A DNA stretch of 64,000 bases from an uncultured Clostridia bacterium. Lineage in GTDB: Bacteria; Bacillota; Clostridia; Oscillospirales; CAG-272. The stretch is taken from NCBI GenBank assembly GCA_947626065.1, contig CANQQT010000002.1, positions 76,197 through 140,196 on the forward strand, in the 5' to 3' direction. A program made the position numbers and the translations under genes. This document shows positions 21,528 to 49,139 of the stretch, one piece after another. Position 1 is the stretch's first letter, and each line of letters begins with the position of its first letter. The notes below the pieces were generated by a model, which saw only the letters and a list, made by a program, of their open reading frames with translations, was not told the DNA's origin and made no database searches.

Positions 21528-21592
21528 CGTAACCTCAAGGAAAAACTTATGAAGAAAAAAATTCAAAAGGAAACAAAACAAGGTGATGAACA

Positions 21593-21847
21593 TTGACATA
21601 CAAAGACGAAAACCGCCCCGAATATATCCGCCGCCTGACGGAGGAGCTCCCGGTTTTGCGGGCAAGGCTTCGTCTCTCGCAGGATGAGCTGGCCCGGGGC
21701 GTCGGGATTTCCCGGCAGACCCTTTCGCTCATCGAAACCGGCAAGCAGTCCATGTCGTGGGTAACCTTCATGGCCATGATTGCCTTCTTCGGCAACAATT
21801 CCAAAACCCGACGGGATCTTATCTCTTTGGGCCTTCTGAAATCCTGA
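21593..21847 (+). CDS. XRE-family HTH transcriptional regulator
   Basis: LSQDELARGVGISRQTLSLIETGKQ helix-turn-helix. TTG start 21593 lies 6 nt after AAGGTGA. Confidence 0.75.
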   Translation: MTYKDENRPEYIRRLTEELPVLRARLRLSQDELARGVGISRQTLSLIETGKQSMSWVTFMAMIAFFGNNSKTRRDLISLGLLKS

Positions 21848-21869
21848 TTCTATATAAGGAGAATTTACC

Positions 21870-23780: not shown

Positions 23781-23791
23781 GGAGGCACACG

Positions 23792-24496
23792 ATGATGAAA
23801 ATTTCGAAAAAGACAAAAATGATGACGGCCATCGGCGCGGTGATCTTTGCCGTCTACAACATTATCTTCTGGCTTCTCTGCGGATTCACCGGCCACCGGG
23901 CCACCTTCTGGATTTCGTGGGGCTTTATGATGGTTTCCTTCTGCGCACTGGCCGTCAGCTACACGCTTCTCGGTCAGCGTCGGCTTCTTCTGCGCGACTG
24001 GCTGTTCGGCTTCCCGATTGTGAAGCACAGCACCATTTACATCCTCGCGGAAGTTCTCTTATCCACCGTTTTTGTCATCCTTGAGAAGAAAATCTCCTGG
24101 CAGCTTGCCTTCTCGGTACAGATTCTCCTCTTCGCCGTCTATCTGGTCTTCGCCATCTCCTGCTTTTTGGCGAAAGCCACCATCGACGACGTGCACACCC
24201 GGGTCGCCGACAAGACCCGTTTCATCAAGCTCCTTCGCGCCGACGTGGAAATGCTCGTTGAAAAGTGCACGGATCCCGGACTGAAGCCGAAGCTCGGAGC
24301 GCTTGCCGAGGCCGTGCGATACAGCGATCCCATGAGCGACGAATCGCTTTTTGAACTTGAAAAGGAGCTTGCGCTCACCGTTTCCAATTGCGATCAAGCG
24401 ATCACAGACGCCCGCTACGAGGAGGCGGCACAGCTCTGCGAAAAGGCTTCCCTGCTTCTCAAAGAGAGAAACAAGAAATGTAAAGCTCTGAAGTAA
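23792..24496 (+). CDS. 4-TM membrane protein with C-terminal helical domain (hypothetical)
   Basis: 234-aa ORF 11 bp after the SPFH stop, preceded by AAGGAGG. Four hydrophobic helices, then a charged helical tail. Confidence 0.7.
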   Translation: MMKISKKTKMMTAIGAVIFAVYNIIFWLLCGFTGHRATFWISWGFMMVSFCALAVSYTLLGQRRLLLRDWLFGFPIVKHSTIYILAEVLLSTVFVILEKKISWQLAFSVQILLFAVYLVFAISCFLAKATIDDVHTRVADKTRFIKLLRADVEMLVEKCTDPGLKPKLGALAEAVRYSDPMSDESLFELEKELALTVSNCDQAITDARYEEAAQLCEKASLLLKERNKKCKALK

Positions 24497-24512
24497 AAGG
24501 AGGAGAAATTTC

Positions 24513-27356
24513 ATGGCCTTATTCAAATGCAAGATGTGCGGCGGGGCCCTTGAGACCGAAGCCTCCTCTTCGGTGGCGGTCTGCCCCTACTGCGGCACCA
24601 AGCAAACCCTTCCGCGTCTGGACAGCGACCGCAGGGAAAACCTCTACGACCGGGCGAACCATCAGCGCAGAAACAACGACTTCGACAAGGCGGCGGCCAT
24701 CTACGAACAGATTCTCAACGAGGACGGAAGCGACGCCGAGGCCTACTGGTCACTGGTACTCTGCCGGTACGGCGTGGAGTATGTGGAGGATCCCGCCACA
24801 CACAAGCGGATCCCCACCGTCAACCGGACGCAATTCACCTCCATTTACGCGGACGAAGACTACAAATCCGCCGTCAAATACGCGGATCCTCTGCAAAGGG
24901 AGATCTACGAGGCCGAAGCGAAGGCTATTGACGAGATTCAGAAGGGCATTCTTGAAATTTCAAAAAAGGAAGATCCCTTTGATATCTTCATCTGCTACAA
25001 GGAGACCGACGAAAACGGAAAACGCACCCGCGATTCGGTTTACGCCAACGAAATCTATCAGCAGCTCACGCAGGAGGGCTATCGGGTTTTCTATTCCCAC
25101 GTCACCATGAGCGGCCGCACCGACGCATATGAACCGTATATCTTTTCCGCTCTGAACAGCGCGAAGCTGATGATTGTCGTCGCCACCAATCTGAAATACG
25201 TCAATTCTCCGTGGGTCAAAAACGAATGGAGCCGCTTTCACGGCCTGATGAAAAAGGACAAAAACCGTGTGATGTACGTTTCCTATCGGGATCTTGACCC
25301 CTATGAGCTGCCCCCGGAGCTGTCCTATCTGAACCTGCTCGATCTGTCGGGGCTCGGCTTTATGCAGGATCTTGTCCGAAACGTCAAAAAGCAGTTTGGA
25401 AGCACTCCCGCGCCCACTGGAGCGACGGCCGCCCCCGCCGCCGCTTCCGGCGCGTCCAACCTGTCCGCACTCTTGAAGCGCGTGACGATTTTCCTTGAGG
25501 ACGGCGACTGGAAAAGCGCCGACGAATACTGTGAAAAGGTTCTGGACGTCGATCCCGAAAACGCGCAGGCCTATCTCGGAAAGCTGATGGCGGAGGTGAA
25601 GGTTCGGCGCCGGGAAGAGCTTGAAAATTGCCCGAAACCGTTTGACGAAAGCGGAAACTACCAAAAGGTTCTGCGCTATGCCAAGGACGACCTCGGCACG
25701 CTTCTGAGCGGATATGTTAAAACAATCAAAGACCGAAACGAAGCGGCCCGTCTGGAGGCCGCCTACAACGAGGCGTCGGCGGCCATGGACTCGGCAAAGG
25801 ACGAAAACGATTTCCGCCATACCCGCATGCTTTTCCTCGGCATCTCCGAGTATAAGGACGCAAGCGAGAAGGCGGAAGAATGCGCCACCAAGGCGGAAAA
25901 CACACGCAAAGAGGCCATCTACGCCGAAGCGTCAGAGATTCTTTCCGCGGCAAGAGACGAGGGAATATTCCAACACGCCCGCGAGCTTTTCCTCAGCATC
26001 CCCGCGTATAAGGACGCGGACGAAAAGGCGGAAGAATGTGCCGTCAAGGCGGAAGCCGCACGCAAGCAGGCGATTTATTCCAATGCTCTCAAAAAGATGT
26101 CGGCATGGAACGTCAAGGAACAGACCCTCCGCGACGCCGCCGCTGAATTTCAAAAAATTCCCGGCTATAAGGACGCCGACGAAAAAGCGGAAGCCTGTCT
26201 TGACGAGGCGGAAACGCTTCGATTGAAGGCCGAAGAAGCGGAAAGAAAAAGGCGGCAGGAAATCGAGGAAGCCCAAAGGAAGCAGGAAGAGCTACGGCTG
26301 CGCACCGAGAAAAAAGAACGTCAAAAGAAACGGATGAAAATGATCGGTCGGATAACCGCAGCTCTTGTCGTTGTCGCCGTCCTTGTCACGGGGGGATTCC
26401 TCCTTGCGAATAAATTCTGGATTATCCCGTCCGGGAAATACAACCGCGCCCTGTCGCTTATGAAGGACGGGGACTATGCTTCCGCGCTGGATATTCTTCA
26501 GGATCTGGACTTCAAGGACAGTCAGGATCAGCGCTACAACTGCGCTGTCAAGCTGCTTGAGCAAAAGGATTACGACCGGGCGATCGCCGCCTTTGCGTCC
26601 ATGCCGGATTACAAGGACTGCGCCGAGAAGCTTCTGCTCGCCAAATACCAGAAGGCCGTTTCGCTTCAATCGAGCGGGAATTATAAAGAGGCTCTTGCCG
26701 TTTTTCGGGAGCTGGACGATTACTCGGACAGCGCCGATCGGCGCTCCGCCATTGTGGGAGAGCACCGCGAATTGGCGGAGGTCGGTGATCGCCTCGTTTT
26801 CGGAAGCTATGAGCAGGACGGAAATTCCGATAACGGCACAGAAGAAATTCTTTGGTACGTTCTCGCCAAGGAGGAGGAAAAGCTGTATCTGATCAGCGAA
26901 TACATCCTTGACTATCGGCCCTATCAGGAAAAATCCTCCGGGTATCATTACGATTGGAAGGACTGTTCCCTCCGCAAATGGCTGAACGAAACCTTCTACA
27001 ACGCGGCCTTTTCGCCGGAGGAGCAGGCGTTGATTGTTCCCACAACGGTCTCCGTCCGTGGAAACAGCGACAAAACAACTGAGAATGTTTTCCTGCTGGG
27101 CTTTGACGAATTGGATTACCTTCCTCGCACGGAGGATCCCATCTTTAATTACCCCGACGTCTTCTCTACGCCATATGCGCAGAGTCTTGGCGCACAGAAT
27201 GACGGCCGCGTGAAATGGTGGTTGCGCGACGACAGTTCCGGCGGCGGGGCTCTCTACATTTATTCGTTATTAACCAACACAGCAGGGGACAGTTGGAGTT
27301 ACGAAAACCTCGGCGTCCGTCCGGTGCTGTGGCTCGACGCGTCCCGAGGGTCGTAA
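24513..27356 (+). CDS. Zn-ribbon / TIR / TPR / coiled-coil / TM / DUF6273-like protein (TIR paralog 2)
   Basis: CKMCG...CPYCG ribbon. TIR core FDIFICYKETDENGKRTRDSVYANEIYQQLTQEGYRVFYSH...SPWVKNEWSRF. Three ~45-aa repeats (F-L-x-I-x-x-YKDA-x-EKAEEC). One TM helix (ITAALVVVAVLVTGGFLL). C-terminal WWLRD...GVRPVLWL domain. Confidence 0.88.
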   Translation: MALFKCKMCGGALETEASSSVAVCPYCGTKQTLPRLDSDRRENLYDRANHQRRNNDFDKAAAIYEQILNEDGSDAEAYWSLVLCRYGVEYVEDPATHKRIPTVNRTQFTSIYADEDYKSAVKYADPLQREIYEAEAKAIDEIQKGILEISKKEDPFDIFICYKETDENGKRTRDSVYANEIYQQLTQEGYRVFYSHVTMSGRTDAYEPYIFSALNSAKLMIVVATNLKYVNSPWVKNEWSRFHGLMKKDKNRVMYVSYRDLDPYELPPELSYLNLLDLSGLGFMQDLVRNVKKQFGSTPAPTGATAAPAAASGASNLSALLKRVTIFLEDGDWKSADEYCEKVLDVDPENAQAYLGKLMAEVKVRRREELENCPKPFDESGNYQKVLRYAKDDLGTLLSGYVKTIKDRNEAARLEAAYNEASAAMDSAKDENDFRHTRMLFLGISEYKDASEKAEECATKAENTRKEAIYAEASEILSAARDEGIFQHARELFLSIPAYKDADEKAEECAVKAEAARKQAIYSNALKKMSAWNVKEQTLRDAAAEFQKIPGYKDADEKAEACLDEAETLRLKAEEAERKRRQEIEEAQRKQEELRLRTEKKERQKKRMKMIGRITAALVVVAVLVTGGFLLANKFWIIPSGKYNRALSLMKDGDYASALDILQDLDFKDSQDQRYNCAVKLLEQKDYDRAIAAFASMPDYKDCAEKLLLAKYQKAVSLQSSGNYKEALAVFRELDDYSDSADRRSAIVGEHRELAEVGDRLVFGSYEQDGNSDNGTEEILWYVLAKEEEKLYLISEYILDYRPYQEKSSGYHYDWKDCSLRKWLNETFYNAAFSPEEQALIVPTTVSVRGNSDKTTENVFLLGFDELDYLPRTEDPIFNYPDVFSTPYAQSLGAQNDGRVKWWLRDDSSGGGALYIYSLLTNTAGDSWSYENLGVRPVLWLDASRGS

Positions 27357-27529: not shown

Positions 27530-27817
27530 TTATTTCTTCTCAATCCGATACCCGAGCGCAATCACCAGCTTCAAAGTATTGAGCGCCGTCTTGCGGTCGT
27601 ATTCCTTTTCGGTATCCGGAAGGGCTTCATACGGGACAAGGCAGGGCGTCTGCTTCTTCGCATCGTCCCGCTTTTCCCCGTAGGTCCAGCCCTCCGCAAC
27701 TCTTCCCTCCGCCCAGACGTCGTGAACGTTTTCCGCAATCTTTTCGGTCAGCTCAAGAAGGTCGTCGGGGAGCTCGATCCCGTCGGTGTCCAGCGGCTTC
27801 GGAACGTACTTTTTCAT
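27530..27817 (-). CDS. RyR-domain protein (stand-alone)
   Basis: 95 aa. IAENVHDVWAEGRVAEGWTYGEKRDDAKKQTPCLVPYEALPDTEKEYDRKTA fits the RyR-domain pattern (H-x2-W...GW-x-YG...hP-x-LVPaxxLPxxEKxxDR). Confidence 0.75.
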   Translation of the reverse strand: MKKYVPKPLDTDGIELPDDLLELTEKIAENVHDVWAEGRVAEGWTYGEKRDDAKKQTPCLVPYEALPDTEKEYDRKTALNTLKLVIALGYRIEKK

Positions 27818-27910
27818 TGCATTTTCTCCTTTTTCGCAGAAATTTCGGCTTTTGCGGCATAGTCCGCTATATAGTCAATATATGCCGCTTCGCGGGCCGC
27901 GCTCCGGGTC

Positions 27911-30028
27911 TTATGAATCTTTTTTCTTTTCATGAGAATCCAGATTTTTCCACGCTTTCAGATCGTTGTGCTGTTTGGCGATATCGTTTCTGTTCGGGGA
28001 ATACCGGTACCCAAGCGTTCTCATATACATATTCCATCGCATATGCTCCGACACGGCCTCTCTTGCACAATCTTCACACGTGCATCCCGCCGGGTGGTCG
28101 GGCTTCCCCTCCCCGCTATCCGATGCAAGATACTTCTTTGCCTCGGCAAGTAGCTCCTCATGCGTTGCTCTCGCGACAGACGATTTTCTGTAGTATTCGT
28201 AATCCATATACCCCTTCGTTTTCTCAATAATCGACTCCCCGAGGGCCTTTGTATCCTCCGACCCCCTGTCCTTTTGGGTCACCGCATCCCTTCTTGTCCA
28301 ATCGAGATGATACCGCAGAGCCTTATCCTCGATTTTCTTCTCTTCGCGAATCCTGTCGTAGGAATATTGATAGCCGAGATTGCCTATAAAGTCAATTCCG
28401 AGGGGCTCCCCGCGATAATTGACGATCCCTCTGCCCTGATTGCAGGTCAGGTTGGCGGCCTTTCTGTCGTCGTAAACGACGGAATAGATCAACGGCTTCT
28501 TCGGCTTCTTCGATGAGTCGGCGTCCCCGGCGCTCGAGCAGAGCCTTTCAAACAGGGTGCGGAGCATCACGGCGGCGTCTATGTTTTTGTCGTCTTCCCC
28601 CAAGGCGACAAACGCAATCCGCGTCCTGCGCAGTCGTTCGCCCGTCTCATTCTCCGCCTCAAACAGTCGGTCAAAATCGGAGGAAAAGCAATCCACTCCG
28701 TCAAAGAACCGGATATCGTAGCAGGAATCTCCTTTCACATCCTTCACAAAGCTCCGAACCTCGTAACCGGAAGCTTCGTCCTTCTCCCCCGCGCGATTCC
28801 TTGGTTCCGTATCGGTGATGATTTCCGGCCATTCCTGCCCCAGTCTTTTCAGCAGATTCTTTTTGCCGCCCTTTTCCTCAAAGGACGCGTCAAAGACGTT
28901 GACCTCCACCTTATATCCGAAAAACTGAAACGTCGACAGCGCCTGCTTCAAAAATTCCTTCCCGTAGCTACCCATTCCGAGAATCGTGAAGGAAAACCTC
29001 CTCTCCGCATTGTCCTCAAAGGCGGCGTCCACGGTTTCTGTCCGCTTGAGCACCTGCTGTACCAGCATCTCTACGCAATCGATTCTTCGGAGGTAGAAGC
29101 CGGAATCGACTGTCTTCTCGCTGTAGAGCTTTTCTTCCAAAAACACCCACGGGTTTTCCTTGATGCTTGCCTCCAGCGTTTTATCCAGTGTGTATTTTCC
29201 CTTGTCCAGAGAATCGAGAATATACCCCGCGCTCGGCTTATTGGAAAAGACGAAAATCGCGATAGGACGGATTGCGCAGTCGTTTTTGTACTCCTCCGTC
29301 AGCTTGATCGCCTGTTCCATGTTTTCGGATTCGTCTTTTCCAATCAGGAAGAACTCCACCCGGTCTTCTTTGGCCTTGACGTTGACCCGGGTGATATCCT
29401 TTTTCAGCAGAATGGCATTGACGTCATGCGCTCTTAACCGGAGCTCATAGTCCTCCTCCTCGTCCCTCTCGAAAACGTCGGTAAAAACGATGACCGGCTT
29501 TTTTATTTCTTTGTCTTTTTTGATGCTTTCCGCCATCGTGATCGACATTTCGTTCAGTTCGGAAAAAATATAGAAGGGCCTCTTTTTCTTCCACGAGAAC
29601 AAAAACTCATTTCTTGCGTTTTTGAAGAGGGAAAGAACGTTGCTGAAGGTAAGAAGCGGCGCCAGAACGTACAGCAGGGCCGCGTAGAGCGAAAAGAGAA
29701 TATGCGGAAGCTCCCCGACCCCCGCGACGGCATTCCGGACGGCGTCAAATTCCCCGTCGAGGATGAACACGCGGAGGGCGTGGTGTACAGAAATCAGAAA
29801 CGGCCTCGCCACCGCGAAGGAGTCCCCGAAATCGTATCCCACATAATAAACCGGGACAAAGACAAAAACCGTCGCGGCAAAGACCCCGAGGGTAAAAATA
29901 TGAAGCGCGGAAAGCACTCTTTTCCCGCGTTCCTTTCCTTTGTAGGCTTTTCTTGCAAGAAAACCGGCCGCAATCAGAACGGCAAATGAAAGCAGACCGA
30001 ATACGGTATATAATACATTCTCTTTCAT
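27911..30028 (-). CDS. membrane protein with Rossmann-like (GxGxxG) modules and C-terminal RyR-like domain
   Basis: N-terminal ~5 hydrophobic helices. FTILGMGSYGKEFLKQAL dinucleotide-fold motif. C-terminal VSEHMRWNMYMRTLGYRYSPNRNDIAKQHNDLKAWKNLDSHEKKKD is RyR-like. Start set to ATG 30028 (GGAGAAAATT upstream) rather than the TTG at 30079. Confidence 0.7.
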   Translation of the reverse strand: MKENVLYTVFGLLSFAVLIAAGFLARKAYKGKERGKRVLSALHIFTLGVFAATVFVFVPVYYVGYDFGDSFAVARPFLISVHHALRVFILDGEFDAVRNAVAGVGELPHILFSLYAALLYVLAPLLTFSNVLSLFKNARNEFLFSWKKKRPFYIFSELNEMSITMAESIKKDKEIKKPVIVFTDVFERDEEEDYELRLRAHDVNAILLKKDITRVNVKAKEDRVEFFLIGKDESENMEQAIKLTEEYKNDCAIRPIAIFVFSNKPSAGYILDSLDKGKYTLDKTLEASIKENPWVFLEEKLYSEKTVDSGFYLRRIDCVEMLVQQVLKRTETVDAAFEDNAERRFSFTILGMGSYGKEFLKQALSTFQFFGYKVEVNVFDASFEEKGGKKNLLKRLGQEWPEIITDTEPRNRAGEKDEASGYEVRSFVKDVKGDSCYDIRFFDGVDCFSSDFDRLFEAENETGERLRRTRIAFVALGEDDKNIDAAVMLRTLFERLCSSAGDADSSKKPKKPLIYSVVYDDRKAANLTCNQGRGIVNYRGEPLGIDFIGNLGYQYSYDRIREEKKIEDKALRYHLDWTRRDAVTQKDRGSEDTKALGESIIEKTKGYMDYEYYRKSSVARATHEELLAEAKKYLASDSGEGKPDHPAGCTCEDCAREAVSEHMRWNMYMRTLGYRYSPNRNDIAKQHNDLKAWKNLDSHEKKKDS

Positions 30029-30085
30029 AATTTTCTCCACTGAGGCGGACGCCGTCCCGTTACGTACGGCGTCCGCCAACCGCTC

Positions 30086-33000
30086 TTACAGATTTGGATC
30101 CCCGTTTTTGCTTTCCTGAAAAACTTCCGCAATTTCTTCCCCGGTGAGATGATTTTCCGACAGCAGTCTTTCGACCAGCTTATCGATGGAGGCTCTGTTC
30201 TCCTCAATCAGCCGGGCGGCCTTGCCCATTTCTTCCGAAAGAATCGCGTTCACCGCCCGCCGAACCTCTCCGGCAAGCTCCCCCGTCGCCGCCTCCTGCG
30301 GCCCTATCACGGCGAGGCCGATCGTCTCATCCATTCCGTAAGAACAGATGAGCTGCCGGGCCATCTCGGTCGCGGAGGCAAGGTCGCCGCTCGCGCCTGT
30401 GGACAGCCCTTCCCTTTCCCCGTAGTAAACGAGCTCCGCGGCGCGGCCTCCGAGGGAGGTTCTTATTCTGGAAAGCAGCTCGTCCTTTGTATAGATCGCC
30501 TTCCCTTCGTTGTCCCCGTGCTGCATATACCCGCCGTGATTGCCTCTTGCGACAACCGTGACGTAGGAGGGCGTTTCCCCGCTCTGCCAGCAGAGGAAGG
30601 CGTGTCCCGCCTCGTGTCTTGCGACTCTTTCAAGCTGAGAGGGAGCCCAGCTTTTCACCTCGCCGCCGATGAAGGTTTCAAACGCCTCCTCAAAGACGGC
30701 GTCGGTCACCTTGAGGTTTCCGTCCCGGATGGCGGTACGGAGCGAGAGCTCGATCACCGATTCAAGCTCCGCCAGACTCATGCCCGTCGACCGAACGGCG
30801 ATGCTGGCGATTTTATCCTCCGAGAGCTCAAAGGCCGCCCTCTCCGAAAGCTTTCCGCGAATATACCGCACTCTCTCGTCCCGCGTGGGCAGGTCTATGT
30901 ACACCCTTCGGTCAAAGCGGCGCAGCAGCGCGGGATCCAGACTTTTCTCCCCTCCCGGCTCAATGTCGAAATTTGTCGCCGCAAGCACGAAGACGGGGCG
31001 GGCGGTGTCGGTCTTGAACCCGTCCATTTCGGTAAGAAAGGCGGTAAGCGTCGCTTCCGTTCCTCCGGAAAGCTCCCCGCCCCTTCTTTCCTTGGCGATG
31101 GCGTCAATTTCATCGACAAACAAAATGGCCGGGGCGTATTTTCTCGCGGTGCGGAAGAGCTCATGAACCTTGTCGGGGCCCTCTCCCACGAACTTTTTTA
31201 AGAACTGATTCCCCTCCGCGGTGATGAAGGTCACGTCGGATTCGCTCGCCATCGCCTTGGCAAGCATGGTTTTCCCGGTTCCGGGAGGGCCGTACAGAAG
31301 GACTCCCTTCGGCGCGCTGACGCCGGTTCCCATATACTTTTTGGGATCCTTCAGGTATTCGACAAAATACCGCAGCTCCTTTTTCGCGTCCTCGGCGCCG
31401 ATCACCTGATCGAAGCGGACGTCGGGCCTTGAGATGCTACTGAGGATGTTTTTGGAATCCTCCGCCTCGATGGCGACGGTCATTTCAAAGTCAAACAGCT
31501 TGATTTCCGCCGTTTGGCCCTTGTTCTTGATCCGCTGTGCGGTTTCAAAGGTAACCAGCTTGTTGGCCTTCGCCAGCGTCTCCATGCTCCTCTGCTGATG
31601 AAGCTTTTCGTTCACCGCTTCAATCTCTTTTGCAAAGCCTTCCCGGCCCTTGGTGAGCGTAATGACCCCCCGAACACCCTGCCGGAGGAAGGAGAGCTGC
31701 TCTTCATACGCCAACTCTTTCTCCTGTAGCTGCAACAGATAGATCGGAACGTCGGAATGCGCCCCACGCATATACCAGAAGAAATCCCTTGCGTCAGACT
31801 CCACGTCCTCAATATTGAGGTATTTGAGCTCCCCGCGTTGACCGTAGGTGGGATCGATGAGAAGGTAGCTCACCCCGTTTTCGCGGAGGGCCTTTTTGGC
31901 ATCCTCCACCGTTCCTGCATAAAGGAACCGCGTGCCCGGCTCCTTTTGAACGCACTGCTCATAGACCGGCCGGGAGGAGAAGACAAGAACTTCCTGCGTA
32001 TCCTGCTTCTCAAAAAGCCCATACAGCTCCTTATTCTCTCTGGGAAGCTCCACACGGATGTCTATCTTTTCGAGCTTTTCCACGCCGGCGTTTGATTTTC
32101 TTGACTCAAGCAGACGGAAAAGCTCAAACAGCTCGTCGTCGAAGAAGGCCTCCGCCCGGCTCCGTACCGTTCTTGCGTCGGCGGCGCCGCCCTCCGCAAA
32201 GAGAAGCGCCGTGTATACCTTCTCGTCAATATCGACCTTGATTCCAATCTCCTTCTCAAAGTTCGAGGCGTGTCTTTTCACCTCCCGCCGTGCGATTTCG
32301 CAGAGGTTATGCGCGGTGATATGATTGAACATCACCACATTTCCGGAAGCAAAGCGGGAGCAAATCGCGGCGGGAAAATAGGGAGTCCCCGTCGCCGGAT
32401 TGACGTCGTTCTGAAGAGCCTTCAAAATGACCTTTCTCGTCACGCCGGAAAGATCCGTCGTTTCCGCGCTCTCATAAAGCTGTTTCCCGGCGTTGGTGGT
32501 GAAAATGATGATGGCGTCCTTAAAGGAAACCTCTTTATCGGTAAAATTATCGCGCAGTCTTCCGGCATCCAGCATCTGTAGGAACAGATGAATGACGTTG
32601 AGGTGCGCCTTTTCGATTTCGTCGAAGAGAACGACGCAGTGAGGATGCTTGGCCACAAAGGAGGTTACGTTGCCCTCCTTGGCGTTCTTGTAGACGTTAT
32701 CCGCGCCGCAGAACTCAATATCCGCCTCTTTGTTGGAATACTCGCTCATGTCAAAGCGCATGAACGGCAGTCCCAAAAGCGCCGCCGCCTCTTCCGCCAA
32801 AAAGGTTTTTCCCACGCCGGGAGGGCCCGCGAAGAGGAAGGTAGCGCGGGGCCGCTTTCTGTTTACGTCGGTAAGCGCCAAAAGCTCCGCCTGAAAATAT
32901 CCCGCCGTGAAGACGCTGACCGCGTTATCCTGACCGAACACCGACGACAGAAGCGCGTCCTGTATGCCGGTGACCCTTCTCGTCAGCTTGGCAACCGCGG

Positions 33001-33586
33001 TTTTCGGATCCTCCTCCGGCTCCTCGTCCGGCTTTTTGTCATCCTCAGCGCCGCCCGCGCTGTCCGTGTCGCCGTCAAAAATGGCCTTTGAAATATCCTC
33101 CACTGGGATTCCTTCTACGCCGGTTTCCCCCGTGTCGCCGATTTCTTCGATGTCGTCGACACCGCCCTCGGCGGCCCTTCTCGCCTTGAGGAGAAAGCCC
33201 GCGATATTTTCATTCGGATCCCTGAAAATACTTTCCAGAAGCGCGTCCGCCGTCAGGCAATCGCTTTTTTTCTTTTGGGCGGCCTCTCTGGCCTCAAACA
33301 TATGCTTCTGAAAATACAGGGCGTCCATATACGAGGGGAGGCGCAGCGTCTCGAGGTACTCCATCGCATAGGCTCTGACGCTGGAAAGATCCCGAATTTT
33401 TGAGGAAAGGAGCGTTTTCATTGCCCTTCCTTCCTCTCCCAGCTCGCTCTCCTTCGCCTCCGTCACAAAATCAATGACGGCGACAAGATACCGTTCCGCC
33501 GTCACGGTCTTCTTTTGATCTTCGGTCAAATTCTCTGCATACTCGATCAGATCGTCGAGCAGATCGCTGTTTTTTACTTCTGCCAT
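30086..33586 (-). CDS. soluble Clp_N-like / ClpB-D2-type AAA+ / FtsH-type AAA+ / M41 metalloprotease fusion
   Basis: VFGQDNAV...FLFAGPPGVGKTFLAEE...VVLFDEIEKAH (Clp D2-type). Then LLYGPPGTGKTMLAKA...ILFVDEIDAI...LLRRFDRRVYIDLP (FtsH-type). Then HEAGHAF (HExxH of M41). No TM helices seen. Start trimmed to ATG 33586 after GAGGAGAGG. Confidence 0.88.
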   Translation of the reverse strand: MAEVKNSDLLDDLIEYAENLTEDQKKTVTAERYLVAVIDFVTEAKESELGEEGRAMKTLLSSKIRDLSSVRAYAMEYLETLRLPSYMDALYFQKHMFEAREAAQKKKSDCLTADALLESIFRDPNENIAGFLLKARRAAEGGVDDIEEIGDTGETGVEGIPVEDISKAIFDGDTDSAGGAEDDKKPDEEPEEDPKTAVAKLTRRVTGIQDALLSSVFGQDNAVSVFTAGYFQAELLALTDVNRKRPRATFLFAGPPGVGKTFLAEEAAALLGLPFMRFDMSEYSNKEADIEFCGADNVYKNAKEGNVTSFVAKHPHCVVLFDEIEKAHLNVIHLFLQMLDAGRLRDNFTDKEVSFKDAIIIFTTNAGKQLYESAETTDLSGVTRKVILKALQNDVNPATGTPYFPAAICSRFASGNVVMFNHITAHNLCEIARREVKRHASNFEKEIGIKVDIDEKVYTALLFAEGGAADARTVRSRAEAFFDDELFELFRLLESRKSNAGVEKLEKIDIRVELPRENKELYGLFEKQDTQEVLVFSSRPVYEQCVQKEPGTRFLYAGTVEDAKKALRENGVSYLLIDPTYGQRGELKYLNIEDVESDARDFFWYMRGAHSDVPIYLLQLQEKELAYEEQLSFLRQGVRGVITLTKGREGFAKEIEAVNEKLHQQRSMETLAKANKLVTFETAQRIKNKGQTAEIKLFDFEMTVAIEAEDSKNILSSISRPDVRFDQVIGAEDAKKELRYFVEYLKDPKKYMGTGVSAPKGVLLYGPPGTGKTMLAKAMASESDVTFITAEGNQFLKKFVGEGPDKVHELFRTARKYAPAILFVDEIDAIAKERRGGELSGGTEATLTAFLTEMDGFKTDTARPVFVLAATNFDIEPGGEKSLDPALLRRFDRRVYIDLPTRDERVRYIRGKLSERAAFELSEDKIASIAVRSTGMSLAELESVIELSLRTAIRDGNLKVTDAVFEEAFETFIGGEVKSWAPSQLERVARHEAGHAFLCWQSGETPSYVTVVARGNHGGYMQHGDNEGKAIYTKDELLSRIRTSLGGRAAELVYYGEREGLSTGASGDLASATEMARQLICSYGMDETIGLAVIGPQEAATGELAGEVRRAVNAILSEEMGKAARLIEENRASIDKLVERLLSENHLTGEEIAEVFQESKNGDPNL

Positions 33587-33676
33587 TTTCCTCTCCTCTT
33601 TCCCATGGATAGCCGCCCCTTGTCCTGACGGTTCTTCCGGGGACTTCCCGTGCTTTCGCCGCACTTTCTTTTCTCG

Positions 33677-34468
33677 TTATCGGTAAAATTGATCCGCGTA
33701 CTCCCAATAGTATTCCTGAAGGGTTTCGTCAAGATAGCCTAAACCCTCTTCCTGAAGCTCCTCAGGGATTCCGAAATACGCCTCCGCGATGGCGCCCGCC
33801 ATGGCCGCCTGCGTGTCGGCGTCGCCCCCGAGAGAAACGGCACAACGGACGGCGTCCTCATAATCCTCCGCTTCAAGAAAGCATTCGATCGCCTGTGGAA
33901 CGCTTCCCTGACAGGTGACGTCGAACCGGTATCCCTCCCGGATTTCGTCGAGGGTAAAGTCAAGGTCATAGTATTTCTCTTCTATATACTGCTTGATTTC
34001 CTCTTTGCTGGAACCGGTTCTGGCAAGGAAAACGGCGGCCGCGACGGCCTGCGCACCCTTTATGCCCTCCGGGTGATTGTGCGTCACCTCCGCGCTCCAT
34101 TTGGCGAGCTCCTCCACGTCGTCAAGCTCGTCCACTGCGTAGGCAACCGGCGAGACGCGCATGGCGGAGCCGTTGCCGAAGCTGTTGTACGCCCCCATGC
34201 TGTCGCTCATCAACCACCGATAAAACATTCCCCCGTAGCCGGCGTCGCTGTAAATCCTTCCGAGCTCCCTCATCTTTTCGACGAGCTTTCTTTTGAACTC
34301 CTCCTCTTGGCTACAGTCCGCCTCTATACACGCGCACCCCACGGCGATCGTCATAATGCTGTCGTCGGTGGGTCTGCTATGAGAGGAAAAGAAAGGAAAA
34401 TCCTTTGTCTTATCCGAACCGATTTCATAGACGGAACCTACGATATCCCCGATAATTGCTCCCAACAT
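33677..34468 (-). CDS. ADP-ribosylglycohydrolase family protein
   Basis: MLGAIIGDIVGSVYE...PTDDSIMT...GNGSAMRVSPVA...GGDADTQAAMAGAIAEA are classic ARH/DraG-family motifs. Confidence 0.88.
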   Translation of the reverse strand: MLGAIIGDIVGSVYEIGSDKTKDFPFFSSHSRPTDDSIMTIAVGCACIEADCSQEEEFKRKLVEKMRELGRIYSDAGYGGMFYRWLMSDSMGAYNSFGNGSAMRVSPVAYAVDELDDVEELAKWSAEVTHNHPEGIKGAQAVAAAVFLARTGSSKEEIKQYIEEKYYDLDFTLDEIREGYRFDVTCQGSVPQAIECFLEAEDYEDAVRCAVSLGGDADTQAAMAGAIAEAYFGIPEELQEEGLGYLDETLQEYYWEYADQFYR

Positions 34469-34599
34469 TTTTCTATTCTCCCTGTCTAGGCCGCCCTTCC
34501 GGCGACCGGTATTTTTTCATGGTTTTTTTGGATCGAGCGGCCCTGACCGCTCCGGAAAAGAGGGAAGCGCTTCCCGCGTTTCCCTTTTCTCCCTCGTTT

Positions 34600-36786
34600 T
34601 TACCGCAAATACGGAAGCAACCGGCTCCGGAATTCGCTCATTTTCACGATTTCCCTCTGCCTCAGCTGCCCCGGCAACCTTCCCTTGTCCCCGACAATAT
34701 CGTCGGCCAACAGCAGAACCAAATTGCCCTTTTTGCGCCCTTCCCGGATTTCGTTATTGAACGTGCTCCATTCGTCCTTCACCCACGCGGTTTTCAGATA
34801 GTCGGGATTCGACCCGATCAGAACCATGTGGCGGGAACGGTCGAGCGCTTCAAAAATCATCTCCTCATATTCGCTTTCGCCGAGGCGTGGGAGGGTTTCC
34901 TTTGAGTAGAAAACCTCCTTTCCGCTCTGCGTCAGATAGTCGTAAACCTTCTTCGCGAGAATTTCGTCCTCCGACTTGAACGACAGAAAGACGTCGTATT
35001 CCCCCGACCTTGGCAGGGCCTGTCCCAGATAAATCTTAAGCGCCTCGCCGACGAGGGAATTTTCCCCCGGCACGGCCTCCCCGTCAAGGGCGCTCAGCTC
35101 CGCGATACGGCTTATGCATTTGTCGGCGATTTCGCCCTTCAGGCCCATGTGCTTGCAATAATTCAACACCCGCTCATACCCGAGAATCAGATCCGACCGG
35201 CTCCCGCTCGGCGGCGGATCCTTCAAAATATCCTCAAACAGGGCGATGGCGGCCTCTCCGTGCTCGGCGATCTTGCTCTCCTTGGCCTCCTGCCCGCTCG
35301 CCTCTTTTTCGGTTCCTCTTTCGTTGGTTTCTACTGTATACCGTGCGTTTTCAAACCGGGAAAGAAGATCCTCAAGGCGAGAGGAGTCCTTCGCCTCCGC
35401 GCCGTCGGAGGAAAGCGTGTCGAAGCCTGTCAGCTTTTTCCTTGCAAGCTCCCGGACGGCATCGGCGTCCATCCCCAGATATGCACAGCAGATAGCGAAC
35501 TGATCCAGCAAAACCTCGCCGCTGTCCCCGCCGTCAAGAAGATTCAGCGCCTCCACCGACCGCTCCAGAGCCTCTTCATACCTCTTCATGTCCAGAAGAA
35601 TGCTGATCCACTTGATGCGGGAAAGCCTGCACACCTCAGCGTCAAGGAAGGCGCCCCGGGAAACGGCAAAAACCTCCTCGCAGAGGGCGAGATGGGCCTC
35701 CTGCCACTGCCTTGCCTGATCGTACATTTTCAGGCAGAGGTAGTTTTCCACCTTTTTGGAAAAGGCCTTAAGCTCCGTCTCCGCAGAGAGGAGCTTGCTT
35801 ATTTTTCCCGCCAGCTTATCGGCGGCGGCTTCGATGTCCCCGTTTTCCACAAGCTCACAGCTCAGAGCCGCGATTCGGCTTCCGACCTCGGAGGCGCTGT
35901 CAAGCTTCACCCCATCCTCAAAGACGGGGAAAAGAAGCGTTCCGTTCTTTTCTGCGCTCTCAAGGGCAAACAGCGTCTCCCTCATCACCTCCGCGCTGTT
36001 CAGCGCGTTGTCCGTAATGACGGGAACGACTATTTTGGCGTTCTGTATGGCGCTTGTCATCGCCTTGTCCCAATCGGCGGACGCGGCCGGCTGCCTATCG
36101 TCGAAAACCGAGATTCCCTTCTCCGAAAGCGCGCGGCAAATGGAGGAATGGAGTGCGGCGTCCTTCTTTGCGCAGGAGACGAACACCTCCGCATACCGCA
36201 GCTCCTTCTCCTTATTCAGGGCATAGTCGTTTATAATGCTTTCATACTGCTTGTATAAGCTCCGATAATCAAACAGCGACCCTTCGCCTCCGTAGACCAC
36301 CACGCGGTCAAAGGCGGACGAATACTTTAGATAGCTCTGCTTCACGTCGCGCCCGGTCTCAAAGCGAACCCTTGCTTCCTCCTCGGTGATGTTGTCCAGT
36401 CTTGCGATGATGCCCCTCAGCGTCTCGTCGTCTATGTAGGCATAAACCAGACAGACCTTGTCCGCATATACGCGCTTGATTTCGGCGAGGAAGGAGATGT
36501 CCTTTGTCGACAACGTGAGCAGACTGTTGACCTTATCGCAAACCGCGTCGGAGATTTGCTGCTGATTGAAGCCGACCCGGATGCCTCCCACCTCATAGCG
36601 GAACAGGGAGTCGGTGTTTTCTGTAAACTCCTCCTCCGACACATACTTGCGGGTACCGTATTTGGTTGTCAGCCGGGGCGCTACGGCATAGTTGTATTTC
36701 TCTACAATCTGAAAGCCTGCGTTTTTAAAATAATCGCGGCTGTTTTGCCCCATTTCCGCAATGGCTCCGTAAAGTATCAATAACAT
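34600..36786 (-). CDS. guanylate-kinase-like (degenerate P-loop) / TIR-like / helical / TIR protein
   Basis: C-terminal TIR YDVFLSFKSEDEILAKKVYDYLTQSGKEVFYSK...TAWVKDEWSTF. Central TIR-like EVFVSCAKKDAALHSSICRALSEKGISVFDD. The N-terminal ~190 aa resemble guanylate kinase (YVSEEEFTENTDSLFRYEVGGIRVGF) but have GAIAEMGQNS where the Walker A motif would be. Start trimmed to ATG 36786 after GGGAGGG. Confidence 0.8.
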   Translation of the reverse strand: MLLILYGAIAEMGQNSRDYFKNAGFQIVEKYNYAVAPRLTTKYGTRKYVSEEEFTENTDSLFRYEVGGIRVGFNQQQISDAVCDKVNSLLTLSTKDISFLAEIKRVYADKVCLVYAYIDDETLRGIIARLDNITEEEARVRFETGRDVKQSYLKYSSAFDRVVVYGGEGSLFDYRSLYKQYESIINDYALNKEKELRYAEVFVSCAKKDAALHSSICRALSEKGISVFDDRQPAASADWDKAMTSAIQNAKIVVPVITDNALNSAEVMRETLFALESAEKNGTLLFPVFEDGVKLDSASEVGSRIAALSCELVENGDIEAAADKLAGKISKLLSAETELKAFSKKVENYLCLKMYDQARQWQEAHLALCEEVFAVSRGAFLDAEVCRLSRIKWISILLDMKRYEEALERSVEALNLLDGGDSGEVLLDQFAICCAYLGMDADAVRELARKKLTGFDTLSSDGAEAKDSSRLEDLLSRFENARYTVETNERGTEKEASGQEAKESKIAEHGEAAIALFEDILKDPPPSGSRSDLILGYERVLNYCKHMGLKGEIADKCISRIAELSALDGEAVPGENSLVGEALKIYLGQALPRSGEYDVFLSFKSEDEILAKKVYDYLTQSGKEVFYSKETLPRLGESEYEEMIFEALDRSRHMVLIGSNPDYLKTAWVKDEWSTFNNEIREGRKKGNLVLLLADDIVGDKGRLPGQLRQREIVKMSEFRSRLLPYLR

Positions 36787-36816
36787 CCTTGTCCCTCCCG
36801 GAACATTTCCTACGCA

Positions 36817-36928
36817 AGCGGATTTCTCCACACGCGGATTTTTCCGCACGCGGATTTCTCCGCAAGCGGGTTTCTCCGCACGCGGATTTCTCCACACGCG
36901 GATTTCTCCGCACGCGGATTTCTCCGCC
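36817..36928. repeat. tandem repeat, 7 units of 16 bp (CGCGGATTTCTCCGCA)
   Basis: Units read directly at 36817, 36833, 36849, 36865, 36881, 36897 and 36913. The array starts 31 bp upstream of the TIR gene start and creates the false N-terminal extension of ORF 34600..36897. Confidence 0.9.
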
Positions 36929-36971
36929 TATTCGCGTCCATCCGCCGAAAAACGGGGAATGACCGCAAGCG

Positions 36972-37436
36972 TCATTCTTCCCTCATCAAAAGCGAAGCCG
37001 CCCTTTCGATATGCCTCTCTTCCAGCCCTCGGCCAATCAGCGGATCGGTTTTCACCGTATAAGGATCCAGCTCCTGCCAGCCGAACTTCTGGTCGTCGAA
37101 AATCACGAAGGCCTCCGTTTCGGGGTGCCTTGTCAGCCAGTCCTTGACTTCCTTGTATCTCTCCTTGCCGAGCTCCTTTGTTCTGTCCCAGAGACGGAGT
37201 CCCTTCCGGCGAAAGGTTTCCTCAAGCGCCCGACCGACCTCGTCGGTCTCCTTCCCCTCCGGATCCCAGTGGCGCCGCCACGTGCTTGTCAGCACAAGGT
37301 TGGCCCCCGTCCGATCCGTCAGCTTTTTCAGCAGCTCAAGCCGGCTTTCGTCGATGTTTCCGTCCTCCGATCCCCGCGAAGCGTCGTACCGACGGGAATT
37401 GAGAACGCCGTCGATATCCAGAAAAATGATTTTCAC
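36972..37436 (-). CDS. HAD-superfamily phosphatase (small, cap-less; polynucleotide-phosphatase-like)
   Basis: MKIIFLDIDGVLNS (DxDG nucleophile motif), LTSTWR (motif II) and VIFDD (motif IV); 154 aa. Confidence 0.75.
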   Translation of the reverse strand: MKIIFLDIDGVLNSRRYDASRGSEDGNIDESRLELLKKLTDRTGANLVLTSTWRRHWDPEGKETDEVGRALEETFRRKGLRLWDRTKELGKERYKEVKDWLTRHPETEAFVIFDDQKFGWQELDPYTVKTDPLIGRGLEERHIERAASLLMREE

Positions 37437-37552
37437 GTCTTGCTCACCACCTTTCCGGTCGGCAAAGGGACGGGGCCTTCCCCGTCCTTCGCCGATTCCA
37501 ATCGCCGCGCCTCCCGGCGCCGTTGTCTTTTCCTCTATATCCTTCCGGACAA

Positions 37553-38431
37553 TTACTTGTATTTAAACGTGAGCGTGAGCGTCCAAAGATTCTTGTCATA
37601 TCTACGCGAATAGGAATTCCCCAAAATTTTCCTGTTCGCTTTGGACGCCGCCCGCACAACCTCATAGCCGTCCTGTCCCACGGCAATCAGCTGATTAAAG
37701 GCTTTCTCGAAGACCTCCTTGCTTTTACACTTAAAGGTAACCTCCTTTTTCCCGGACTTTGCCGCCGCCTGCGCCATCACGTTGACAATATCGCCGGCGC
37801 CGGAGGACTCATAGGCAAAGATTCCTCTGTCGGGCTTGCTTTCCGGCTTGGTCACGTTCTTTCCGATCGCCAGATAGGTGATGCGCGGAGTCGAATTGTT
37901 GGGCATAACGGTGGAGGCATAGGAGGTCAGCTTGGAATTCAGCTCCCCCTCGGATACGATACCTCCCGAGGAGCTTTGAAATTCTCCGTCGGTAATCACC
38001 ACAAGCCAATACTGCGTATTGACGTCGGGATCCTGAACGGATGCCAGCTTGTTGAAGGCGATATCCAGAGCGTTATACGGGGTATTGCTCGCCGCAGTAT
38101 GCTTCCGGATGGAATCGACCGAGGACTGTATCGCCGAAGCGGACAAATCAATCCCGGGCGGGTTGAGGTTCGGATTCTTCTCCGCCTCGCTCATATAGGT
38201 GATATAGAGCTGATCGTCGCTGTTCAGCAATCCGCAGAAGGCTTGCATGGCATAGCTTGCATAGGCCCAGTTGGACGACCCGTAATTCTTCATGCTTTCG
38301 GAGTCGTCATAGACTACGGAAACAATTTTCCGGATATACAAAGAATCTGCGGCGACAGTCATCGGGATATACGCCGCAAAGACACTGCCAAAGAGAACGA
38401 CCGCTAGCAATGCCGCCAGTAGCCTTTTCAT
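37553..38431 (-). CDS. signal-anchored von Willebrand factor A (vWA) domain protein
   Basis: MKRLLAALLAVVLFGSVFAA signal/anchor, then the MIDAS motif VVYDDSESM (DxSxS) and VVITDGE. Start trimmed to ATG 38431 after GAAGGAGG. Confidence 0.8.
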   Translation of the reverse strand: MKRLLAALLAVVLFGSVFAAYIPMTVAADSLYIRKIVSVVYDDSESMKNYGSSNWAYASYAMQAFCGLLNSDDQLYITYMSEAEKNPNLNPPGIDLSASAIQSSVDSIRKHTAASNTPYNALDIAFNKLASVQDPDVNTQYWLVVITDGEFQSSSGGIVSEGELNSKLTSYASTVMPNNSTPRITYLAIGKNVTKPESKPDRGIFAYESSGAGDIVNVMAQAAAKSGKKEVTFKCKSKEVFEKAFNQLIAVGQDGYEVVRAASKANRKILGNSYSRRYDKNLWTLTLTFKYK

Positions 38432-38589
38432 CTTGTTCCTCCTTCGATGTCGCCTGTTTGCGGCGGCGCGGCCCTTTTCGGGGAAATTTCTGAACACCGG
38501 ATTCCTCCGGTTTCCCCATCCCGGGCCCTCTCCGCCCTGCTTTCGTATGACAGCAAGCCCCGGACGCGGTGCCGGAGCTTGCTGATAAG

Positions 38590-45109: not shown

Positions 45110-45124
45110 TTAATAAAATGCCAA

Positions 45125-46405: not shown

Positions 46406-46435
46406 AACATAGCACCTCTTTTTTCAAAATTATTT

Positions 46436-48139: not shown

Positions 48140-48245
48140 AACTGTATGATGATAAATCTATCAAAAACAGGTAGCTCGAACGCAAACCCACTATAAAGAA
48201 CAGGGAGAATCGCAGAACGACTCTCCCCACTCCACGTTAAATTAC

Positions 48246-48893
48246 TTAGCCAACCGAAAGATTAAGCGTAGCCGATTTGAGAATATTGATAAAATTCTCC
48301 GTATATTGATCAGAGCAATCATAGTACGCCGAAATACCTTTGCCCTCCATTTTAGCCGAAACTTTCCCAAATTTTTTAAGAGAATTACGGCCTTCTTCGT
48401 TGACATTCATTCCGATAGCGACGCGAAGAGCACGGCGGAAGGCTTCCACTTCTTTGCTACCGCCTTTTACAGCGCATTCCATAACCTCATCAAATGTCGG
48501 ATTGGTACCGTTGGGCTCACCGTCCGAAATTAAAATGATGGCAGGAGGTAAGGCGTCGGGATCTTTATCCCCTCGGGCACCACCTTGAATATCCTGGATA
48601 ACAGCCTGAATTGCCGCCCCGGTAGGAGTCCCACCAGCAAATGACTCCGCGGTTAAAGGTGCCCACTGTTGGGACAAGCTTTCCAAATCAGTCTCCGGAA
48701 TAATCACCTTTATGGTATCGGCACCGGCAAAGCCCAAAACCTCAAACTTGATCTTCATATTGGCGTCTTTATCGCGGATGATATCTGGTACGACCTTTTT
48801 CATAACCTCCTCCATGGCGGTATTAACTGCATCACCCCGCTTTCCATACATCGAGCCCGAGCAATCGATCAAAAAATACACTGTCTTGTTCAT
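48246..48893 (-). CDS. TerY-like vWA protein, paralog 1
   Basis: MNKTVYFLIDCSGSMYGKRGDAVN (DxSxS MIDAS) and ILISDGEPNG; 215 aa, the size and layout of TerY. Confidence 0.88.
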   Translation of the reverse strand: MNKTVYFLIDCSGSMYGKRGDAVNTAMEEVMKKVVPDIIRDKDANMKIKFEVLGFAGADTIKVIIPETDLESLSQQWAPLTAESFAGGTPTGAAIQAVIQDIQGGARGDKDPDALPPAIILISDGEPNGTNPTFDEVMECAVKGGSKEVEAFRRALRVAIGMNVNEEGRNSLKKFGKVSAKMEGKGISAYYDCSDQYTENFINILKSATLNLSVG

Positions 48894-48955
48894 AATTTTT
48901 TCTCCTTAAGATTTTAGGCGTCTCCGCCTTAATTTACAATTTAATTTTTAAACGA
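48853..48955. repeat. 103-bp perfect direct repeat, copy A (first 41 nt of vWA paralog 1 plus 62 nt of 5' leader)
   Basis: Read base by base and identical to 49747-49849: gagcccgagcaatcgatcaaaaaatacactgtcttgttcataattttttctccttaagattttaggcgtctccgccttaatttacaatttaatttttaaacga. Confidence 0.9.
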
Positions 48956-49036
48956 TGCAAAAATGCATCTTAATCGCAAGCACCCGTTTACCAGTCCGTA
49001 AAACTCGGATGAAACGAAGGCGGATCTATGATTTCG

Positions 49037-49139
49037 CACATTGAGTCACGAAGCGCATCCGATTGCGCAGGGAGATCGTAGTATGCCGAAAGTCCAAAAT
49101 TCTCCATTGCTTTGGGAATCCTTCCATTTTTTAAGAGAG
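49037..49139 (-). pseudogene. degenerate duplicate of the 3' coding end of a TerY-like vWA gene
   Basis: cacattgagtcacgaagcgcatccgattgcgcagggagatcgtagtatgccgaaag...ttttttaagagag aligns with 49156-49278 inside paralog 2. The paralog 2 stop codon (49131-49133) falls inside this duplicate. Confidence 0.6.

Follow-up and report, generated by a model that had tools for sequence, protein, structure and literature searches.

A soluble fusion of two AAA+ motors and an M41 protease in gut Clostridia: a probable proteolytic hub among exchangeable signalling and effector genes

Well-studied AAA+ proteases either combine an unfoldase with a separate peptidase, as in Clp, or have a single ring fused to the peptidase, as in FtsH and Lon. 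A gene at positions 30086 to 33586 in a 64,000-nucleotide stretch of DNA from an uncultured Clostridia bacterium (assembly GCA_947626065.1, contig CANQQT010000002.1; the whole stretch is called the window in the following) raises the question what a protein may do that carries motors of both types together with a protease in one chain. An earlier note, made from the letters alone, had described it as a self-contained soluble fusion of a Clp-D2-type AAA+ module, an FtsH-type AAA+ module and an M41 protease, and our Pfam, NCBIfam and PDB searches as well as the invariant motifs agree with this description. At the level of its sequence, the gene product is confirmed as a real soluble protein in which both AAA+ modules, each from a different clade, and the M41 site are intact; the clades of both modules were assigned from their best matches among hidden Markov models (HMMs) and PDB entries.

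Domain architecture of the fusion protein

The gene lies on the minus strand and can be divided as follows:

30086..33586, minus strand: whole gene, a soluble fusion of 1166 amino acids (aa) with Clp-D2-type AAA+, receiver-like, FtsH-type AAA+ and M41 protease parts (open reading frame, Pfam, NCBIfam, PDB, AlphaFold2)
33167..33586, minus strand: N-terminal helical domain, residues 1-140, variable, possibly Clp_N-like (AlphaFold2)
33011..33166, minus strand: acidic disordered linker, residues 141-192 (pLDDT, alignment gaps)
32177..32989, minus strand: first motor, Clp/Hsp100 D2-type AAA+, residues 200-470 (AAA_2, ClpA/ClpB/ClpV D2, Hsp104/ClpA D2)
31646..32074, minus strand: receiver-fold (CheY-like) domain, a putative pseudo-receiver, residues ~505-647 (AlphaFold2, Foldseek, profiles)
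31472..31645, minus strand: long helix (residues 648-673) and long beta-hairpin (676-704) leading from the receiver fold to the FtsH-type motor (AlphaFold2)
30662..31441, minus strand: second motor, FtsH-type classical AAA+, residues 716-975 (AAA, FtsH_fam, Foldseek 4z8x)
30089..30661, minus strand: M41 zinc metalloprotease domain, residues 976-1166 (Peptidase_M41, zinc-site residues)

The reading frame is uninterrupted from a GTG at 33664 to its end at 30086. The single frame of 1166 aa and its coordinates, as given in the earlier note, are right, because the ATG at 33586 is directly preceded by a ribosome-binding site (AGGAGAGG) and coincides with the near-invariant first residue in an alignment of 119 homologs; a longer version starting from the GTG is unlikely. 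The lack of hydrophobic helices was likewise seen correctly. No membrane helix is predicted by a Kyte-Doolittle hydropathy rule, which was used here in place of a dedicated transmembrane predictor and gave a top 19-residue value of 1.08 (family median 1.25), and FtsH_ext is not among the 25 of 33 Pfam families listed for the window. An AlphaFold2 model calculated with the family alignment has a mean pLDDT of 84.4. The architecture as a whole is covered by no solved structure, as a full-length Foldseek search returned FtsH-like halves only.

Domain searches revealed two bona fide AAA modules and an M41 site that is not degenerate, with Pfam scores far above the curated cut-offs. In the first motor, AAA_2 matches residues 245-377 (3e-35, 122 bits against a cut-off of 27), the best NCBIfam matches to residues 202-461 are the second domains of ClpA, ClpB and ClpV, and residues 205-459 align in a PDB sequence search with the D2 domains of Hsp104, ClpA and ClpB at approximately 1e-30, including the pore-loop Tyr. 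Conservation was assessed in the 119 homologs, which are 57-70% identical, and in a broader set of 48 diverse members, some of which share only 20-40% identity in their middle part. Walker A (G254-T261), Walker B (D322/E323), TTN 363-365, R411 and D470-R472 are invariant among the 119 homologs; the motifs GPPGVGKT, FDEIEK and TTNAG, the Arg finger R411 and the sensor-2 DAR are all invariant or nearly so. The Clp D2-type ATPase that had been recognised from motifs of this kind is thus well founded. In a few of the 48 diverse members its pore-loop stretch is shorter or contains gaps.

Like Clp/Hsp100 proteins, the fusion protein has the Walker A and B motifs, sensor-1, Arg finger, sensor-2 and pore-loop Tyr of a D2 domain in place. 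Unlike ClpA, ClpB, ClpC or Hsp104, however, it possesses the D2-type module only, without the Hsp100 D1 and without the coiled-coil middle domain, and the protease provided in cis is a metalloprotease and not ClpP; an IGF/IGL tripeptide for ClpP docking was not seen on reading the sequence. Its scores are below the NCBIfam equivalog cut-offs for ClpA (161 bits against 993) and ClpB (124 against 1232). It carries a Clp-D2-type module, yet it is not a Clp/Hsp100 protein.

The second motor matches the Pfam family AAA at residues 762-898 (3e-50) and is followed by Peptidase_M41 at residues 986-1155 (3.5e-32, 112 bits against a cut-off of 29.9). Both together, residues 710-1152, find their best NCBIfam match in FtsH_fam with 353 bits, well over PAN, CDC48 and other classical AAA families and below the 600-bit equivalog cut-off for FtsH (TIGR01241). 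The cytosolic region of FtsH matches residues 719-1157 at 1e-77 in a PDB sequence search, and Foldseek aligns the C-terminal half of the model with FtsH 4z8x (TMt 0.72, 35% identity). The motifs GPPGTGKT, DEID, ATN and RRFDR and the pore loop KFVGEG are kept among the 119 homologs, in which furthermore H991, E992 and H995 are invariant and D1068, the third-ligand Asp within GASGDL, is at least 90% conserved. These results substantiate the complete FtsH-type ATPase and the M41 zinc site (HEAGH) of the earlier note. HExGH and GxxxDL were found in 48 of 48 diverse members, along with the nucleotide-binding motifs of both motors; the pore loops are less constant than the other motifs, and that of the second ring was lost in one Lachnospiraceae subclade. 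Since the motifs are kept across the 119 close and 48 diverse relatives, the pattern indicates selection for two active ATPases and an active protease in this family.

The likeness to FtsH (M41; TIGR01241; AFG3L2, YME1) extends over the whole cytosolic region, to which residues 710-1157 align with ~35% identity and a TM-score of ~0.7-0.8, and comprises Walker A and B, the second region of homology, an FVG-type pore loop, HEXXH and the third-ligand Asp. In contrast to FtsH, there are neither transmembrane helices nor a periplasmic domain, approximately 700 residues with a motor of another clade and a receiver-fold domain have been added N-terminally, and the gene is accessory whereas FtsH is universal. 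It belongs to the M41 family of proteases without being an FtsH ortholog.

The earlier note had distinguished four parts. Three of these, the D2-type ATPase, the FtsH-type ATPase and the M41 domain, stood; the Clp_N label of the N-terminus found weak support, and a fifth part had been overlooked. The N-terminal residues 1-140 form seven helices in the model (pLDDT ~80-97). They have no Pfam match at E<=10, a scan of the organism's own genome with the Clp_N model did not report the protein, and alignment with the Clp_N domains of relatives' ClpB/C by hhalign gave a weak match (57% probability, E 1e-4, 113 columns), so that a Clp_N-like N-terminus could not be confirmed. This is also the least conserved region (mean top-residue frequency 0.44 in the 119-homolog alignment), and several homologs can be aligned only from about residue 175-200 onwards; many relatives have another N-terminal part in its place. 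The linker behind it is gap-rich and unconserved, with pLDDT values below 50 for residues 142-189.

The overlooked part is the middle domain. It shows a (beta-alpha)5 topology both in the full-length model and in a model of the domain alone (pLDDT 88.2). All 50 of the top 50 Foldseek matches in the PDB are response-regulator receiver domains (TM 0.70-0.78, probability 1.0), and weak profile matches were obtained to ArcA, CheY and NtrC1; a Pfam match, such as to Response_reg, was not found. From the phospho-acceptor pocket the beta3 Asp, D578, is alone kept (at least 90% conserved), as judged by reading the alignment against the strands of the model and not by structural superposition, and the domain is best called a pseudo-receiver. 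The helix and hairpin that follow (648-704) carry a conserved LAKANK..FETAQ motif.

Distribution and gene neighbours

The earlier note had considered that this architecture might turn out to be a common housekeeping paralog. This did not hold, and we rejected it because the organism has a separate, canonical FtsH on another contig (G000:C18; L001 25449-26015, in a 707-aa frame) and the distribution of the fusion gene is patchy: it occurs in 8 out of 151 genomes of the family and in 17 out of 401 of the order, there in about ten families with 50-64% identity, and it is absent from one same-genus genome that was searched with it. A scan of the genome collection yielded at least ~30 true family loci, the other matches being Clp-like, of low coverage, and ignored. 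Among 1.84 billion representative proteins, the middle domain falls into 219 clusters at 50% identity. Most of the full-length matches are proteins of 1100-1250 aa in which its position is the same. The named hosts among the matches listed are for the most part Clostridia from gut and rumen; a few belong to Bacteroidota, Victivallales and Vulcanimicrobiota. The tree of the fusion protein does not track taxonomy. Judged from these comparisons, it is an accessory, horizontally moving gene. A third, weak M41-like frame of 442 aa (37.6 bits; L003 G000:C3:75037-75540) was noticed in the organism's own genome.

In the window, the fusion gene is located within a minus-strand series of genes (27530-38497) which in addition to it comprises, from upstream to downstream:

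37553-38497, minus strand: vWA protein, membrane-anchored, same strand as the fusion gene and four genes upstream of it
36972-37436, minus strand: HAD_SAK_2 protein (6.5e-25), with the HAD domain of 'Swiss Army Knife' RNA-repair proteins
34600..36897, minus strand: TIR-TIR-TPR protein, 765 aa (TIR_2 2.3e-30, two stretches)
33677..34468, minus strand: ADP-ribosylglycohydrolase (ARH; ADP_ribosyl_GH 6e-35), adjoining the fusion gene upstream, a local neighbour only
27911..30028, minus strand: membrane protein c2, with N-terminal transmembrane helices, two Rossmann-like regions (GxGxxG, LGxDDxNI) and a RyR-like C-terminus; downstream of the fusion gene
27530..27817, minus strand: stand-alone RyR protein, 95 aa (RyR 6.5e-37)

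The conserved cassette at this site is formed by the fusion gene, c2 and the RyR gene. The most likely start of c2 is the ATG at 30028, which has a ribosome-binding site. By the hydropathy measure used above c2 reaches 2.24, and its own RyR match in the window is weak (0.011). Between the stop codon of the fusion gene and this start there is a perfect 10-bp GC-rich inverted repeat (30044-30077, minus strand; GGCGGACGCC ... GGCGTCCGCC) with a 14-nt loop and no T-tract after it, which may act in the stability or the processing of the RNA. A promoter and terminator scan of 27-39.5 kb was uninformative.

To see which genes accompany the family elsewhere, same-strand neighbours within three genes of the fusion gene were counted in a sample of at least 51 loci. 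Five types of partner recur:

11 of 51 loci: c2-type membrane protein, directly adjacent to the fusion gene, ~600-860 aa (N-terminal transmembrane helices, two Rossmann-like regions, RyR-like C-terminus)
9 of 51 loci: stand-alone RyR protein (6.5e-37 in the window)
9 of 51 loci: CARF-PD-(D/E)xK nuclease, ~422 aa (PADLOC model CARF4--CARF_PDDEXK, 3.6e-30, full length)
11 of 51 loci: proteins resembling YbjN or type III secretion system (T3SS) chaperones (up to 2e-14)
8 of 51 loci: Ser/Thr kinases (kinase-TPR-WD40 or FHA-kinase), in long forms also fused to the N-terminus of the fusion protein

Pfam tallies of the neighbours agree with these cluster counts, and four metagenomic loci added later, which bring the total to ~55, contain the same partner classes. 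Partners are swapped even between sister proteins: one locus has RyR where its sister has CARF (L005 and L007), and two other pairs (L045/L046, L060/L062) differ likewise. The kinase-linked forms make up most of one deep clade of the tree, and one homolog of c2 carries a true RyR domain (1e-34) as a fusion. A 694-aa protein at L042 was picked up by the c2 HMM and was rejected, since the alignment shows that it is not a true member. The partners are, by their domain assignments, mostly of second-messenger-binding and effector type (nuclease, membrane protein), and this pattern suggests that the function is a regulated one, in signalling or immunity, and not a housekeeping one.

The role in the service of the neighbouring TIR and ARH genes which the earlier note had proposed fits only a part of the family. 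A TIR gene adjoins the fusion gene in the window and at the loci of the two closest relatives, L004 and L160 (~68-70% identity), whereas TIR_2 accounts for only 2 of 115 same-strand neighbours within two genes in the 51 loci, and ARH was found only here. Recurrent partners do exist in the flanking genes, but they are those listed above; TIR and ARH were rejected as conserved partners and retained for the nearest subclade only. L004 also contains YjeF_N and isochorismatase genes, both of which have NAD-related roles. At L160 (14631-19066) a ClpP/NfeD-like gene and a TraG-type coupling protein of a type IV secretion system lie a few genes downstream, a hint that a conjugative element can carry the cassette or be located next to it.

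Some genomes hold two paralogs of the fusion gene, either in tandem (L075, L076) or at two loci of the same assembly (L161 and L162, GCA_947631245.1). Paralogs at separate loci differ in their partners, with CARF, c2 and RyR at one and two proteins of ~160 aa at the other. Long family members of 1500-2260 aa (L072, L076, L078, L079; P0198, P0237, P0260, P0264, P0265) are extended at the N-terminus by a fused Ser/Thr kinase, TPR repeats and a region resembling a beta-propeller; at related loci the kinase-TPR-WD40 protein is separate and encoded upstream.

With their TIR proteins, a DUF4011 helicase-nuclease and a vWA/PP2C/kinase set, the wider surroundings resemble a conflict-type island. A low-GC block (40310-50551, minus strand; 0.41-0.44 against ~0.55 elsewhere) encodes a DUF4011-SF1 helicase-REase_MTES_1575 protein of 1599 aa, a Ser/Thr kinase (45125-46405), a PP2C phosphatase (46436-48139) and three tandem vWA genes (48246-48893, 49131-49787, 49898-50551); it resembles a TerY-type vWA/phosphatase/kinase triad beside a helicase-nuclease defence gene. 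The plus strand (19380-27356) encodes two membrane-anchored TPR-TIR proteins (19380-21527 and 24513-27356, the latter ending in DUF6273), both of which have a hydrophobic helix near residues 590-615. Between them lie the genes for an SPFH/Band-7 protein, which carries a double zinc ribbon (21870-23780), and for a membrane protein of 234 aa (23792-24496). This set may be a separate TIR-based module.

Proposed working and alternatives

We consider the fusion protein to be, more likely than not, a cytosolic, ATP-dependent, processive zinc protease which serves as the proteolytic hub of a modular signalling or conflict cassette. Following what is known from Clp/Hsp100 and FtsH, it would assemble as a hexamer, with the Clp-D2-type ring placed on the FtsH-type ring and the latter on the M41 chamber, and substrates would be threaded through both rings and cut inside the chamber. 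Substrates or adaptors may be picked by the variable N-domain or, in some relatives, by the fused sensor kinase, and the YbjN-like proteins would be good adaptor candidates. In the NtrC-type AAA+ activators, receiver domains gate the assembly or the activity of the ring, and the pseudo-receiver in front of the FtsH-type ring may do the same. As in the regulators NtrC, NtrX and DctD, the receiver fold stands directly N-terminal to a AAA+ ring, and the receivers of NtrX, NtrC1 and DctD are among the Foldseek matches; by analogy, this placement suggests control of ring assembly, although these regulators have a AAA+ module of the sigma-54 activator type and no protease.

The fusion protein would thus be the constant hub, and c2 with the small RyR protein, the CARF-PD-(D/E)xK nuclease, the YbjN/T3SS-chaperone-like proteins and the Ser/Thr sensor kinases would be its exchangeable parts. 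RyR domains are connected with ADP-ribose-type and CARF domains with cyclic-oligoadenylate-type signals, and because they bind such signals, a nucleotide may act as the trigger. According to the most likely logic, a nucleotide signal or a kinase input would set when the protease degrades, activates or resets a partner or another target; alternatively, it may be directed by its partners. In the window, the upstream TIR and ARH proteins could make and remove such a signal. Phage RyR-domain proteins bind or hydrolyse two isomers of cyclic ADP-ribose (cADPR), 2'cADPR and 3'cADPR, by means of His, Trp, His and Asp (2026 preprint, PMC13232231). According to our own reading of the alignment, three of the four ligand residues of RyDEP, namely H, W and D, are present in the RyR protein of the window, with the phosphate-contacting His changed to Thr, and the C-terminus of c2 keeps all four. 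More tentatively, the fusion protein, c2 and the small RyR protein may together make up an as yet undescribed system for immunity or conflict in gut Clostridia. In such a system RyR would be the receptor or hydrolase of NAD-derived signals, for instance of TIR-made cADPR isomers, the ligand would recruit the protease to the membrane or release it from there, and other versions would work with the CARF-nuclease, YbjN or sensor kinases.

Several observations weigh against a hub within a signalling cassette. No signal-making enzyme, cyclase or TIR, is conserved beside the fusion gene, TIR being present in 3 of ~55 loci. Approximately 20 of the 51 loci have no recognised partner beside it at all, and the protein may therefore act alone. 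PADLOC contains no full-length model for the fusion protein or for its c2, RyR and YbjN partners, so that membership in a defence system is guilt by association only; the fusion protein itself was matched there through single AAA+ domains (IetA 5e-45, DolB 7e-27, TRIP13). The loci are a sample, their open reading frames were called by a simple greedy method, and the partner clusters depend on BLAST and HMM thresholds and were named with Pfam and PADLOC. Finally, the receiver fold differs from the receivers of NtrC, NtrX and DctD in lacking the acidic pair (the sequence after beta1 is VLVFSS), the Thr/Ser (beta4 ends with Q or E) and the conserved Lys.

Part of these points return when other explanations are considered. 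A Thoeris-like system, which would concern the nearest subclade only and comes near to the proposal of the earlier note, appears doubtful to us. Here TIR would make an ADP-ribose-derived signal on infection, RyR and c2 would sense it, the protease would be the effector, degrading cell proteins or activating c2, and ARH would clear the signal. It draws on the TIR genes beside the fusion gene here and at both L004 and L160, on the adjoining ARH, on YjeF_N and isochorismatase at L004, and on the published RyR domains together with the complete set of ligand residues in c2. A TIR link as such is plausible, on the available comparisons, for the subclade of the window, L004 and L160, because TIR genes are adjacent there and RyR domains bind or cleave TIR-made cADPR isomers (PMC13232231). 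However, the rarity of TIR and the restriction of ARH to this locus speak against the Thoeris-like system, and most of the fusion genes linked to RyR or c2 are without a nearby TIR. Moreover, RyR is not an established Thoeris sensor, the published cases being phage anti-defence proteins, and with several opposite-strand TIR genes in the window the adjacency may simply reflect a TIR-rich island.

That the protein is a stand-alone accessory protease for quality control or stress, a soluble paralog resembling FtsH with an extra ring for tougher substrates and incidental neighbours, is unlikely. Its motifs are all of general unfoldase-protease type, some loci lie among ordinary metabolic genes, and the partnerless loci fit well; but a gene in ~5% of genomes and missing from the same-genus genome is an odd candidate for such a role, the same four partner classes recur adjacent and on the same strand in different families, some members are fused to sensor kinases, and the N-terminal domain is variable. 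Still much less probable is a remodelling ATPase, a disaggregase or complex disassembler, with an M41 domain that is merely structural as in chloroplast FtsHi. Foldseek also matches Ycf2-FtsHi motor subunits, and some AAA+ fusions are generally known to keep inactive protease domains, yet the conservation of HExGH and the third-ligand Asp in all 48 diverse and nearly all 119 close members points to selection on catalysis. The signal-controlled protease with exchangeable partners is the reading which we prefer.

Relation to known systems and significance

Among the closest known counterparts are the FtsH ternary systems (Kaur, Burroughs, Iyer, Aravind 2020; PMC7159879), which have two FtsH-type modules, the first of them inactive, together with a MoxR-vWA pair, and which were found in deltaproteobacteria, actinobacteria and planctomycetes. 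The fusion protein resembles them as an FtsH-type protein with two AAA+ modules in a predicted conflict setting, and a vWA gene (37553-38497) is nearby; it differs in its first module, which is of Clp-D2 type and intact, and in its gut Clostridia hosts. A MoxR/AAA_3-type gene is absent from the scanned neighbours in the window. Because of the first module and the missing MoxR gene, membership in the ternary systems was rejected.

A protease coupled to nucleotide-signal immunity is known from the CRISPR-associated Lon-SAVED protein CalpL. Type IV Thoeris has a caspase-like protein, ThsE (10.64898/2025.12.03.692087). With these, as with the IetA and DolB systems, the fusion gene shares that a protease or AAA+ ATPase is encoded beside second-messenger sensor domains; the PADLOC matches to IetA and DolB cover single AAA+ domains only. 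To our knowledge, no protease-coupled signal-immunity or AAA+ defence system of this group uses an FtsH/M41 protease or a fusion of two motors.

In the limited library of literature that was searched (FtsH, Clp fusion, RyR, YbjN, CARF) the family is not described, nor did we find there a description of one chain that stacks AAA+ rings from two clades on an M41 chamber with a receiver fold between them. Apparently, this is a small, patchy and undescribed family of gut Clostridia. It would be a compact model for the cooperation of heterologous rings and for the gating of a protease by a receiver fold, and its cassette offers a direct way of finding out which signals the RyR domains of bacteria perceive and whether the response consists in regulated proteolysis. 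It is conceivable, though we suggest this with much reserve, that the fusion protein stands for a proteolytic system of a new, signal-controlled kind. Should it indeed form an immune system with c2 and RyR, this would be the first FtsH-type protease acting as an effector or regulator under the control of a second messenger; and if it were only an accessory quality-control protease, it would still be a new FtsH variant of gut Clostridia.

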